Shown here one piece after another: positions 4,484 to 8,590 of a stretch of DNA of 13,856 nucleotides. The translations under genes were made by a program, and so were the position numbers. Every line of letters starts with the position of its first letter. Position 1 is the stretch's first letter. The notes below the pieces were generated by a model, which was not told the origin of the DNA, made no database searches, and was given only the letters and a program-made list of their open reading frames with translations. The stretch lies in the IMG/VR virus record IMGVR_UViG_2585427730_000012; one strand, written 5' to 3'. This stretch comes from a virus (taxonomy: Duplodnaviria; Heunggongvirae; Uroviricota; Caudoviricetes).

Positions 4484-4559
4484 TGAACAAGCCCCATGTC
4501 GGCAAGCATAAGCACACAGAATATGAAGCCCGCTGCCAGAAAAATGCATTCAGTGGTTG

Positions 4560-4751
4560 TCATACCTGGTCTCTCTCATCTGCTTCTGCTTTCGCCACCA
4601 TCATTTCCAGCTTTTGTGAAAGGGATGCGGCTAACGTATGAAATTCTTCGTCTGTTTCTACTGGTATTGGCACAAACCTGACTCCAATTTGAGCGAGGCT
4701 ATGTGCCATCTCGATACTCGTTCTTAACTCAACGGGAGATGCTTTGTGCAT
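4560..4751 (-). CDS. λ orf63-like small protein (63 aa)
   Basis: A 63-aa ORF whose coordinates map exactly onto λ orf63 when the same offset that fits exo, bet, gam, kil, cIII and ea10 is applied. Confidence 0.7.
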   Translation of the reverse strand: MHKASPVELRTSIEMAHSLAQIGVRFVPIPVETDEEFHTLAASLSQKLEMMVAKAEADERDQV

Positions 4752-4906
4752 ACAGCTCCCCGTTTATTATTTATCTCCTCAGCCAGCCGCTGTGCTTTCA
4801 GGGGATTTCTGATAACAGAAAGGCCGGGAAATACCCAGCCTCGCTTTGTAACGGAGTAGACGAAAGTGATCGCACCTACCCGGATATTATCGTGAGGATG
4901 CTTCAT
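4724..4906 (-). CDS. λ orf60a-like small protein (60 aa; an ATG two codons upstream at 4912 is also possible)
   Basis: [34 protein letters not shown]...; its start overlaps the exo stop codon, the arrangement recalled for λ exo/orf60a. Confidence 0.7.
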
Positions 4907-5583
4907 CGCCATTGCTCCCCAAATACAAAACCAATTTCAGCCAGTGCCTCGTCCATTTTTTCGATGAACTCCGGCACCATCTCGTCAAAACTCGCCATGT
5001 ACTTTTCATCCCGCTCAACCACGACATAATGCAGGCCTTCACGCTTCATACGCGGGTCATAGTTGGCAAAGTACCAGGCATCTTTTCGCGTCACCCACAT
5101 GCTGTACTGCACCTGGGCCATGTAAGCCGACTTTATGGCCTCGAAACCACCGAGCCGGAACTTCATGAAATCCCGGGAGGTAAACGGGCATTTCAGCTCA
5201 AGGCCATTGCCGTCACTGCATAAACCATCGGGAGAGCAGGCGGTACGCATACTTTCGTCGCGATAGATGATCGGGGATTCAGTAACATTCACGCCGGAAG
5301 TGAATTCAAACAGAGTTCTGGCGTCGTTCTCGTACTGTTTTCCCCATGCCAGCGCCTTAGCATTAACTTCCGGAGCCACACCGGTGCAAACCTCAGCCAG
5401 CAGGGTGTGGAAGTAGGACATTTTCATGTCAGGCCACTTTTTTCCGGAGCGGGGTTTTGCTATCACATTGTGAACTTCTGAAGCGGTGATGACGCCGAGC
5501 CGTAATTTGTGCCACGCATCATCCCCCTGTTCGACAGCTCTCACGTCGATTCCGGTACGCTGCAGGATAATGTCCGGTGTCAT
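4903..5583 (-). CDS. exo: λ exonuclease (Red alpha), 226 aa
   Basis: [65 protein letters not shown]... matches λ Exo as recalled; ATGA overlap with the bet stop. Confidence 0.97.
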
Positions 5584-6365
5584 GCAGCCACCTTCTGCTC
5601 AGTGGCTTTCTGTTTCAGGAATCCAAGAGCTTTCACTGCTTCGGCCTGTGTCAGTTCTGACGATGCGCGAATGTCGCGGCGAAATATCTGGGAACAGAGC
5701 GGCAATAAGTCGTCATCCCATGTTTTATCCAGGGCAATCAGCAGAGTGTTAATCTCCTGCATGGTTTCATCGTTAACCGGAGTGATGTCGCGTTCCGGCT
5801 GACGTTCTGCAGTGTATGCGGTATTTTCGACAATGCGCTCGGCTTCATCCTTGTCATAGATACCCGCAAATCCGAAGGCGAGACGGGCACACTGAATCAT
5901 GGCTTTATGCCGTAACATCCGTTTGGGATGCGACTGCCACGGTCCGGTGATTTCTCTGCCTTCGCGGGTTTTGAATGGTTCGCGGCGGCATTCATCCATC
6001 CACTCGGTAACGCAGATCGGATGATTGCGGTCCTTGCGGTAAATCCGGCATGTGCAGGATTCATTGTCCTGCTCAAAGTCCATGCCATCAAACTGCTGGT
6101 TTTCATTGATGATACGGGACCAGCCATCAACGCCCACCACCGGAACGATGCCGTTCTGCTTGTCAGGGAAGGCGTAAATTTCTTTCGTCCACGGATTAAG
6201 GCCGTACTGGTTGGCGACGATCAGCAATGCGATGAACTGCGCATCGCTGGCATCACCTTTAAATGCCGTCTGGCGAAGAGTGGTGATCAGTTCCTGTGGG
6301 TCGACAGAATCCATGCCGACGCGTTCAGCCAGCTTCCCAGCCAGCGTTGCGAGTGCTGTACTCAT
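5580..6365 (-). CDS. bet: λ Bet (Red beta) single-strand annealing protein, 261 aa
   Basis: [100 protein letters not shown]... matches λ Beta as recalled. Confidence 0.97.
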
Positions 6366-6370
6366 CCGTT

Positions 6371-6787
6371 TTATACCTCTGAATCAATATCAACCTGGTG
6401 GTGAGCAATGGTTTCAACCATGTACCGGATGTGTTCTGCCATGCGCTCCTGAAACTCAACATCGTCATCAAACGCACGGGTAATGGCTTTTTTGCTGGCC
6501 CCGTGGCGTTGTAAATGATCGATGCAGAGTGATTCAAACAGGTTCTGGGGCAGACCTTTTTCCATGTCGTCTGCCAGTTCTGCCTCTTTCTCTTCACGGG
6601 CGATCTGCTGGTAGTGACGCGTCCAGCTCTGAGCCTCAAGACGATCCTGAATGTAATAAGCGTTCATGGCTGAACTCCTGAAATAGCTGTGAAAATATCG
6701 CCCGCGAAATGCCGGGCTGATTAGGAAAACAGGAAAGGGGGTTAGTGAATGCTTTTGCTTGATCTCAGTTTCAGTATTAATATCCAT
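6371..6787 (-). CDS. gam: λ Gam (RecBCD inhibitor), 138-aa long form; the internal start [15 protein letters not shown] gives the short form
   Basis: [100 protein letters not shown]... matches λ Gam as recalled. Confidence 0.95.
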
Positions 6788-6885
6788 TTTTTATAAGCGT
6801 CGACGGCCTCACGAAACATCTTTTCATCGCCAATAAAAGTGGCGATAGTGAATTTAGTCTGGATAGCCATAAGTGTTTGATCCAT
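6742..6885 (-). CDS. kil: λ Kil (FtsZ-inhibiting host-killing protein), 47 aa
   Basis: [47 protein letters not shown] is present as the C-terminal part of the 6742-7011 ORF; overlaps the gam start as in λ. Confidence 0.85.
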
Positions 6886-7018
6886 TTTTTGGGACTCCTG
6901 GCTGATTAAGTATGTCGATAAGGCGTTTCCATCCGTCACGTAATTTACGGGTGATTCGTTCAAGTAAAGATTCGGAAGGGCAGCCAGCAACAGGCCACCC
7001 TGCAATGGCATATTGCAT
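6854..7018 (-). CDS. cIII: λ CIII (FtsH inhibitor that stabilises CII), 54 aa
   Basis: Hand-translated: [54 protein letters not shown], then TAA; missed by the ORF track because it is shorter than the cutoff and overlaps kil in another frame. Confidence 0.9.
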   Translation of the reverse strand: MQYAIAGWPVAGCPSESLLERITRKLRDGWKRLIDILNQPGVPKNGSNTYGYPD

Positions 7019-7090
7019 GGTGTGCTCCTTATTTATACATAACGAAAAACGCCTCGAGTGAAGCGTTATTGGTATGCGGTAACGCCGCGC

Positions 7091-7459
7091 TCAGGCGGCT
7101 TTGATAGTCATATCATCTGAATCAAATATTCCTGATGTATCGATATCGGTAATTCTTATTCCTTCGCTACCATCCATTGGAGGCCATCCTTCCTGACCAT
7201 TTCCATCATTCCAGTCGAACTCACACACAACACCATATGCATTTAAGTCGCTTGAAATTGCTATAAGCAGAGCATGTTGCGCCAGCATGATTAATACAGC
7301 ATTTAATACAGAGCCGTGTTTATTGAGTCGGTATTCAGAGTCTGACCAGAAATTATTAATCTGGTGAAGTTTTTCCTCTGTCATTACGTCATGGTCGATT
7401 TCAATTTCTATTGATGCTTTCCAGTCGTAATCAATGATATATTTTTTGATGTTTGACAT
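7091..7459 (-). CDS. ea10: λ Ea10-like protein, 122 aa
   Basis: 122-aa ORF MSNIKKYIIDYDWKASIEIEIDHDVMTEEKLHQINNFWSDSEYRLNKHGSVLNAVLIMLAQHALLIAISSDL...; length and coordinates match λ ea10 under the same offset as the Red genes. Confidence 0.85.
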   Translation of the reverse strand: MSNIKKYIIDYDWKASIEIEIDHDVMTEEKLHQINNFWSDSEYRLNKHGSVLNAVLIMLAQHALLIAISSDLNAYGVVCEFDWNDGNGQEGWPPMDGSEGIRITDIDTSGIFDSDDMTIKAA

Positions 7460-7477
7460 CTATTCATATCCTCACAG

Positions 7478-7505
7478 ATAAAAAATCGCCCTCACATTGG
7501 AGGGC
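7478..7505 (-). terminator. Intrinsic terminator on the leftward (pL) transcript just upstream of ea10
   Basis: Minus strand reads GCCCTC-CAATGT-GAGGGC followed by GATTTTTTATC: a 6-bp GC-rich stem with a U-run. Confidence 0.55.
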
Positions 7506-7719
7506 AAAGAAGATTTCCAATAATCAGAACAAGTCGGCTCCTGTTTAGTTACGAGCGACATTGCTCAGTGTATTCACTCGTTGGAATGAATACACAGTGC
7601 AGTGTTTATTAGTATGCCTGTCTTTTAACCACATCAGGCTCGGTGGTTCTCGTGTACCCCTACAGCGAGAAATCGGATAAACTCTATTCACCCCTACAGA
7701 GAGCAAAAGAGAAACGCCG

Positions 7720-8301
7720 ATGAACAACTCATGGTGGCAGGAACTAATGCATTTTTTCCTGCAAGGAATGACACTTAAACAGTTGATTCATATGCTAATC
7801 ATCCTGATCATATTGATTATTGTTATGCCTGTAAGCGTAAAAGAATGGATAAACCTGCATAATCCAGAAATCCTTCCTCATTACTGGATGTATTACATCC
7901 TGTTGTTTTGCGTTAGCTATGTGCTTAACGGCGTTGTTAATTCCGCTTATCACGCTGTGACTGAAAGAATTGAGATATTCGCTGCTCAGAAGCGCAAATC
8001 TAAAGAAGAGAAATACGTGCAAGATTTGTTTGATTCGTTAACTCTTGGAGAAAGAGCGTATTTGGCATTCGCTGTAGCCGCTAATAACCAGCTAAAGACA
8101 GAAAAGGGAAGCCCTGAAGCAATCTCATTGCTCGAAAAAGGGCTTCTTATTCGGGTACCTTCTGCTACTGGATATCCTGAAATCGACCGTTTTGTTATCC
8201 CGGAACGCTATAGAAATGAGTGCTACATTAGGTTTGCTGGGAAGAAAGACAGTCTTATGGATGAACTTATCGCTCAGGATAAGCATGGCAAAAACAAGTA
8301 A
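7720..8301 (+). CDS. sieB: Superinfection exclusion protein B (SieB), membrane protein; 193 aa from first ATG, 184 aa from ATG at 7747
   Basis: N-terminal hydrophobic segment LIHMLIILIILIIVMPVSV; opposite strand to the surrounding early-left genes; ends 16 bp before the N-like gene, as λ sieB does; the 184-aa form matches the recalled λ sieB length and coordinates. Confidence 0.82.
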   Translation: MNNSWWQELMHFFLQGMTLKQLIHMLIILIILIIVMPVSVKEWINLHNPEILPHYWMYYILLFCVSYVLNGVVNSAYHAVTERIEIFAAQKRKSKEEKYVQDLFDSLTLGERAYLAFAVAANNQLKTEKGSPEAISLLEKGLLIRVPSATGYPEIDRFVIPERYRNECYIRFAGKKDSLMDELIAQDKHGKNK

Positions 8302-8317
8302 TTAGCAAATTAATTTA

Positions 8318-8590
8318 TCATCTCGCCGTCAGTTGTTTTGATTTCCGGTAGCCTGCCGCGTAAATGGCTACGTTTGGCAGGCAAATACTTCCACTGCATT
8401 CATCTGCCTTCTTGCAGCGAAGGCTTCCGAGTGATGCTGCTTTGTCTGCTCTGACGCAACCAGAGAGCTTTAGCGCAATTTTTCGCGCCAGTCGCTGTTC
8501 TTGCATTGCCTGCTCACGTTGAGCCTGTCTGCGTGCTCTGCGGCGATTTCTGGCGTTATTGTCAGCCAGATATGTAATGACTACTGCCAT
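8318..8590 (-). CDS. N-type transcription antiterminator, P22 gene 24-like, with arginine-rich motif; 90 aa
   Basis: MAVVITYLADNNARNRRRARRQAQREQ... has an arginine-rich N-terminus and the C-terminal ...NVAIYAAGYRKSKQLTAR resembling P22 gp24; GGAGG lies 5 nt upstream of the ATG; immediately downstream of nutL/pL. It is not λ N. Confidence 0.75.
   Translation of the reverse strand: MAVVITYLADNNARNRRRARRQAQREQAMQEQRLARKIALKLSGCVRADKAASLGSLRCKKADECSGSICLPNVAIYAAGYRKSKQLTAR

Follow-up and report, generated by a model that had tools for sequence, protein, structure and literature searches.

A PreS homologue and a conserved hairpin in the ral-less ea10–sieB interval of a lambdoid prophage

The interval between ea10 and sieB (positions 7460–7719) in a 13,856-nucleotide stretch of viral DNA (IMG/VR record IMGVR_UViG_2585427730_000012, class Caudoviricetes; the whole stretch is referred to here as the window) is very probably a natural ral-less configuration of the early-left (pL) region of a lambda/P22 hybrid prophage, with a PreS block on one side, a sieB promoter block on the other and an empty cargo slot between them. 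The genes around the interval (exo, bet, gam, kil, cIII, ea10, sieB and an N-like gene) place it in the early-left operon of a lambdoid prophage. The leftward ea10, annotated as Ea10/ssb in the identical phage records, forms the left edge of the spacer, and the rightward sieB flanks it on the other side. A 216-aa ORF of the window, recognized by eye, is presumably a P22 c2-like repressor. The arrangement is real but ordinary and already known, being a common, previously sequenced ral-less variant, and tL2a, PreS, the sieB promoter and the boundary sequence bsq4 have each been described. The sole lead not met in the papers and records consulted is the hairpin next to PreS with its three versions. 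The coordinates of the features are given in Table 1.

Table 1. Features of the ea10–sieB interval and its flanks (positions are those of the window)
Feature	Position	Strand	Remarks
ea10 (ssb-like, DUF2528)	7091..7459	-	122-aa ORF; collinear with lambda ea10 (33536–33904)
Intrinsic terminator tL2a	7480..7507	-	Stem-loop 7507..7486 and T run 7485..7480; PreS 3′ end
PreS (LPR1), Hfq-dependent small RNA, 87 nt	7566..7480	-	Published primers mapped onto the window
PreS seed TGTTCTGATTATTGGAAA	7514..7531	-	18 nt of the published seed deletion (primers P970/P971)
Conserved hairpin	7568..7595	-	12 bp in leftward RNA (7595–7584 with 7579–7568); 9 perfect bp as DNA
Linker AGTGCAGTGTTTATT	7596..7610	.	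Conserved block stops at 7600; lambda identity stops at 7610
Junction AGTA	7611..7614	.	Sole bases in place of the 340 bp of lambda with ral and orf28
sieB-upstream block common to lambda and P22	7615..7699	+	94% identity to lambda 34396–34480 (blastn)
sieB promoter	7653–7683	+	Alignment to the annotated P22 promoter; start at about 7690
Direct repeat ACCCCTACAG(C/A)GAG(A/C)AA	7656–7672 and 7690–7706	+	0 expected by chance
P22-type sieB, 193 aa	7720..8301	+	85% identity to P22 SieB; phrog_1301, E = 6e-124

The junction and the absence of ral and orf28

Alignment to the lambda reference (NC_001416) with blastn matched window positions 4555–7610 to lambda 31000–34055 at 97.7% identity and matched the sieB-upstream block to a second lambda segment (Table 1). 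At base level, identity with lambda runs to ...GTGTTTATT (7610), is followed by AGTA and resumes at TGCCTGTC (7615); the 340 bp of lambda 34056–34395 are represented in the window by these 4 bp only. Both ral (34087–34287) and orf28 (34271–34357) lie wholly inside the missing segment. This comparison, which an earlier sequence-only reading of the window had named as a check, sets the end points at 7610 and 7615, and the interval is not collinear with lambda. The same reading had held that ral and orf28 are missing, which is confirmed, and had expected ral at 7642–7842, which is a correct consequence of the lambda offset. It also judged the interval to be about 290 bp shorter than in lambda; the interval is indeed shorter, but by 317 bp when measured from the annotated gene starts (577 versus 260 bp). 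Its statement that ral had been replaced by a spacer has to be given up: the flanks of lambda itself meet at the 4-bp junction. Outside 7611–7614, all of the spacer is also present in lambda (7460–7610 and 7615–7699) or in P22 (7615–7719), with both hairpins and the first repeat copy consisting of lambda sequence and the sieB-proximal end being P22-like. The spacer is two lambda flanks joined, with nothing novel in its sequence.

Searches of the window with lambda Ral and Orf28 (tblastn) yielded nothing credible. The best match for Ral (E = 0.077, 34 aa, 29% identity) lies outside the early-left operon, no Ral-like ORF (about 66 aa) was found within that operon, and the displaced ral homologue that had been considered as a counter-explanation did not appear in the window. 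Ral of lambda alleviates type IA restriction; on this established knowledge, lambda-style alleviation should be beyond a phage without ral, and therefore no such relief of type I restriction would be expected here. The suggestion that the anti-restriction repertoire is changed is a reasonable inference from the known role of Ral, but the state is naturally common: VT1-Sakai has it, and of 5426 complete E. coli genomes 456 do too (about 8%; 61-nt junction-spanning probe, fully covered). By comparison, the PreS-plus-hairpin block is present in 2154 of the 5426 genomes (about 40%) and the lambda ral/orf28 block in 786. An exact match to the junction is found in a prophage beside ybhC in strain 120899, and the AGTA junction also occurs in several IMG/VR contigs. 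Twelve phage records, including Lambda_2E9, 1H12 and VT1-Sakai, match window 7000–8400 at 99.5–99.6% identity with 100% coverage.

These occurrences bear on the possibility that ral and orf28 were lost through a recent deletion private to this one prophage, a decay lesion. The difference from lambda can be written in this way, as deletions of lambda 34056–34383 and 34389–34395 that leave TAGTA (34384–34388), yet the same junction recurs in the 456 complete genomes, the 12 phage records and the IMG/VR contigs, and the flanking genes are intact. We therefore consider a private deletion very improbable, and a second ral-less junction in other phages also speaks against it. In a survey of 118 IMG/VR loci anchored on the hairpin, in which the sequence to its right was classed, the slot held lambda-type ral, ral with one or two additional small genes ahead of it, a protein of 156 aa or one of 293 aa, one of several sets of small ORFs, or nothing; the extra cargo proteins all belong to PHROG families of unknown function (PHROGs scan). 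The second junction, TTATTCGTA, was seen in two of the loci (L013 and L114), and the same linker precedes unrelated cargo in others, which fits an old empty slot that has spread through the exchange of modules. The reuse of this linker at the second junction suggests that the empty slot is a modular state passed on by inheritance, as opposed to a new deletion.

Two further details of the surveyed loci may be recorded. The 293-aa cargo protein (phrog_12139; L066 and L074) is encoded 53–934 nt to the right of the hairpin and ends in 20 residues that match the C-terminal peptide of the transcription-termination factor Nun (phrog_5632, E = 4e-5). In L013, sieB is apparently cut after 73 codons by two IS3-family-like transposase ORFs, identified by eye, about 400–1600 nt to the right of the hairpin.

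Coding by the spacer itself was considered as well, since the program-made ORF list contains a 60-aa ORF (7545–7727, minus strand) and a 39-aa ORF (7561–7680, plus strand). That either encodes a small protein is scarcely credible. Both ORFs start with TTG, cross the mosaic junction and overlap the small RNA, the hairpin and the promoter; inspection by eye showed no Shine–Dalgarno motif directly ahead of 7727 in the minus-strand sequence; and no matched record carries an annotation here. Moreover, the frame is not conserved, lambda and the other cargo classes differing completely across the junction.

PreS, tL2a and the adjoining hairpin

The left part of the interval corresponds to a characterized lambda RNA. 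LPR1, renamed PreS, is an Hfq-dependent small RNA located "between ea10 and ral" that ends at tL2a, is seen as RNAs of about 88 and 68 nt and is made during lytic growth; in lambda it activates translation of dnaN, represses that of alaS and assists replication of the phage DNA (Silverman et al., bioRxiv 10.1101/2024.10.31.621285). We set the ends of PreS by the cloning, deletion and T7 primers of that study (Table S5; P810, P1103, P1104 and arms P968–P971), which fix the RNA as GAGCAATG...GATTTTTT, equivalent to lambda 34011..33925 and, by script mapping, to the window positions in Table 1. The authors treat sequences with at least 92% identity and at most three gaps as homologues; over its full length the window copy is identical to lambda at 86 of 87 positions with no gaps, and the sole difference lies in the terminator loop. 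The 18-nt seed through which PreS pairs with dnaN and alaS, M1 and M2 positions included, matches that of lambda exactly. A terminator scan found the tL2a stem (8 bp, five of them G–C pairs) followed by TTTTTT on the minus strand, and the same stem is present in the predicted fold, so that the GC-rich hairpin and poly-U tail of an Hfq-binding 3′ end are there in the sequence. The Sf6 homologue of this terminator is annotated 'terminator; homology to phage lambda; tL2A', and the ea10 ribosome-binding site comes immediately after it on the leftward strand. The terminator-like hairpin noticed earlier from the letters is thus real and is tL2a. By homology, the function of PreS and its binding of Hfq would carry over to this prophage.

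PreS is missing from Rfam 15 and from RefSeq annotation and therefore looks like anonymous spacer. No Rfam family covered PreS or the hairpin, either at gathering thresholds in the whole window or at permissive E-values over 7300–8400, where matches were at chance level only, and the RefSeq genomes carry no annotation under PreS. The only family above its gathering threshold in the window is the cIII thermoregulator RNA (RF01804; 6973–7031, minus strand, 88.5 bits). svsR, a small RNA of lambdoid prophages, was rejected as a relative of PreS; it is an unrelated RNA from the 3′ end of cI.

In a set of 100 unique IMG/VR sequences, almost every position between about 7484 and 7600 is conserved at 95% or more and both flanks fall below 50%, which delimits a sharply bounded block equivalent to window 7481–7600 with non-homologous sequence on either side. 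The seed positions are also at least 95% conserved in these sequences, a value that is partly built in as the set was gathered by exact matches to a 19-nt seed pattern or to the hairpin. Since the hairpin is conserved together with PreS and tL2a, with a sharp drop on either side, it belongs to one unit with them, which is the "bsq4; boundary sequence" of phage Sf6.

In the minimum-energy fold of a 137-nt leftward RNA, the junction-specific CUAAUAA (7606–7612) pairs with UUAUUGG in the PreS seed (7519–7525). This predicted helix is weak and AU-rich and may be due to chance; if true, the pairing would mask the seed in the unprocessed precursor RNA.

The inverted repeat that had been described as a strong 9-bp hairpin is real and forms 12 bp, including one U·G pair, as minus-strand RNA (-15.4 kcal/mol, z = -6.2), with none of 200 shuffled sequences folding as well. 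Folding and conservation in related phages, which had been proposed as a check, thus showed a strong fold that is kept across phages, and the hairpin sequence in lambda is identical. A gap of 1 nt separates the last paired base from the 5′ end of PreS. This single base (7567) is A in the window (U in the RNA) and C in lambda and most relatives (G in the RNA); with G at this position the hairpin can reach 14 bp (-18.8 kcal/mol), compared with the 12 bp formed here. The PreS preprint (10.1101/2024.10.31.621285) gives neither a role for the hairpin nor the origin of the PreS 5′ end, and no function for the hairpin is stated in the phage records.

The lambda-type hairpin (type 1), at least 95% invariant in the IMG/VR set, leaves no room for covariation analysis, and only its replacement by hairpins of other sequence is informative. 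A scan of IMG/VR for PreS copies with an upstream neighbour unlike the start of the lambda hairpin gave a complete listing of 69 loci, none of which lacks a hairpin: about 65 carry a type 2 hairpin (AUAGCAGAUUU...GAGUCUGCUAU), three carry a type 3 hairpin (CUAAGCAC...GUGCUUAG) and one has a point variant of the lambda type. Types 2 and 3 fold at -12.4 and -12.3 kcal/mol (z = -4.5 and -3.5, respectively), and all three types end 1–3 nt before GAGCAAUG. Between types 1 and 2, 8 of the 12 pairs are changed on both sides, and in their alignment 97.5% of the cells are paired versus 24–53% when the partners are slid, counts that correspond to roughly two independent events and not to many because there was probably one block replacement per type. 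Type 1 probably gave way to type 2 in one such replacement, which many phages then inherited. One pair is U·G in every row of this alignment and so forms only in minus-strand RNA. Type 3, which MAFFT did not bring into register, is assessed by its own fold. That three unrelated versions retain the fold suggests that the hairpin has a structural function in the leftward RNA and argues that a hairpin as such, not a particular sequence, would be required at this place.

We weighed this reading against one in which the inverted repeat acts as DNA, either as a protein-binding palindrome or as a recombination hotspot. The repeat sits exactly at the mosaic boundary, the Sf6 block is annotated as a boundary sequence, and Watson–Crick covariation alone is blind to the difference between DNA and RNA and to strand, all of which would suit a role at the DNA level. 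A sequence-specific DNA-binding site, however, agrees poorly with the preservation of the fold by three unrelated sequences; the U·G pairs of the minus-strand RNA become C·A mismatches on the other strand, and the minus-strand RNA is accordingly the better folder (-15.4 versus -13.1 kcal/mol); and the end of the hairpin always lies 1–3 nt from the PreS 5′ end. Action as DNA is thus unlikely, and the hairpin most likely acts in the leftward RNA. It might there define or insulate the 5′ end of PreS, for example as a processing determinant, or it might serve as a protective 3′ end for the mRNA of the upstream cargo; both suggestions are conjectural. More tentatively still, the hairpin, PreS and tL2a could make up one portable RNA cassette in which the hairpin is functional and which doubles as the swap patch bsq4, the ral-less phages being the empty-slot state. 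This is a possibility to which we give somewhat less than even weight. If true, a cassette of about 120 bp would provide the patch of homology for swapping accessory genes such as ral.

Matches to PreS in other taxa call for caution. A scan of GTDB genomes with the PreS seed for divergent homologues returned mostly lambda contamination and was unusable for covariation. Exact matches to the 19-nt seed were seen in Pseudoxanthomonas, Pontibacter, Shewanella (a 48,542-bp contig), Pseudomonas (contigs of 48,442 and 48,392 bp), Bacteroides MAGs and one archaeal MAG (loci L122–L154); the contigs are lambda-sized or of low coverage, and these matches look like contamination with lambda DNA. The record MW057783.1 ('Campylobacter phage CJLB-4', 48,361 bp, about the length of lambda) contains the PreS/hairpin block at 33835–33975 (98.6% identity) and is probably a lambda-like sequence under a wrong host name.

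The sieB promoter, the direct repeat and the sieB gene

The right part of the interval contains a P22-type promoter. The P22 record NC_002371 annotates a sieB promoter at 29690–29720 with an RNA start at 29727, and a four-way alignment shows the window, P22 and lambda to agree at every promoter column. A promoter scan found no consensus promoter in 7600–7720; the sieB promoter departs from consensus, and its position comes solely from homology to the annotated P22 promoter. From this homology, it would drive the P22-type sieB/esc in the prophage. The sieB ORF has an in-frame esc start at M25 (7792), in agreement with P22, where the annotated esc start lies at +72 nt relative to that of sieB.

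The duplicated motif that had been noticed near sieB is real: ACCCCTACAGNGAG occurs at 7656 and at 7690, and no match is expected by chance. The copy at 7656 falls within the -35/spacer portion of the sieB promoter, and the one at 7690 starts exactly where transcription is inferred to begin. Both copies of the ACCCCTACAG(N)GAG repeat are complete in P22, and lambda has only a 10-nt core of the second. To our knowledge, no factor that binds the ACCCCTACAG repeat has been described.

Regulatory RNA structure had been proposed for the spacer, acting on sieB or in the leftward transcript. The leftward part of this proposal stands, in the form of PreS, tL2a and the hairpin; the part concerning sieB does not, as 7600–7719 has no significant fold. 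A structured sieB leader in this right half of the spacer was accordingly rejected (z = -0.4 and -0.5 on the two strands). The antisense RNA sas of P22, considered as a 'regulatory RNA for sieB', was not placed since it is unannotated in either P22 record. A promoter-like site on the minus strand (7835..7807; CTTACA, a 17-nt spacer and TATGAT) lies in the 5′ part of sieB, about where, we assume, sas might start. Both of its hexamers are weaker in P22, and its assignment as the sas promoter is doubtful.

Proposed arrangement and relation to known phages

In the arrangement that we favour, a variable cargo slot lies between two conserved regulatory blocks and is empty in this prophage. The left block, in leftward order, comprises the 12-bp hairpin, PreS and tL2a. 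During lytic growth, transcription from pL would cross N, then sieB in the antisense direction and then the left block, and RNA ending at tL2a would yield PreS, the seed of which is predicted to pair with host dnaN (activating its translation) and alaS (repressing it) and so to aid phage DNA replication. This role was shown for lambda, and we infer it for the prophage because PreS is identical at all but one position and the seed is unchanged. On the right, the sieB promoter would express the sieB/esc exclusion gene rightward in the prophage, as may be expected from its identity to the mapped promoter of P22.

Published phage genomes already contain the ral-less arrangement, as do about 8% of complete E. 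coli genomes. With PreS and the hairpin present in about 40% of these genomes, annotation of PreS would be worthwhile. The hairpin variants that conserve the fold offer a lead on the biogenesis of PreS and on why the block marks a boundary of cargo exchange.

Comparison with lambda shows that the terminator with its U tail, the hairpin upstream of PreS and the location upstream of ea10 on the leftward strand are all shared with the window. Two substitutions separate the PreS regions, one in the loop of the terminator and the other at the hairpin base (7567). The 5′ side of the hairpin distinguishes the two phages, as it is occupied by ral in lambda, whereas in the window the sieB promoter region follows after 19 nt.

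In Sf6 (AF547987), the 113-bp bsq4 and tL2A correspond to window positions of about 7488–7600 with 97.7% identity, and the block has non-homologous flanks in both phages. The Sf6 block is followed by gene 34 and then ral, without sieB, and gene 33 takes the place of ea10.

P22 (NC_002371) resembles the window on the other side of the slot, sharing the promoter sequence, the Esc start codon and the repeat copy at the transcription start. Between its sieB promoter and gene 17, P22 carries ral, orf78 and orf87; the PreS block was not seen next to gene 17 in the stretch of P22 examined.

The closest known counterpart of the interval is the Stx1 phage VT1-Sakai (AP000400) of E. coli O157:H7 Sakai, which shares cIII, ea10/ssb, the spacer, a P22-type sieB and a phi21-type N with the window and likewise lacks ral. 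Within 7460–7719 there is no substantial difference between the window and VT1-Sakai, Lambda_2E9, 1H12 and related phages of the ev series. Elsewhere, the window is unlike the VT1-Sakai group, having the c2-like repressor recognized by eye and its match beside ybhC in strain 120899.
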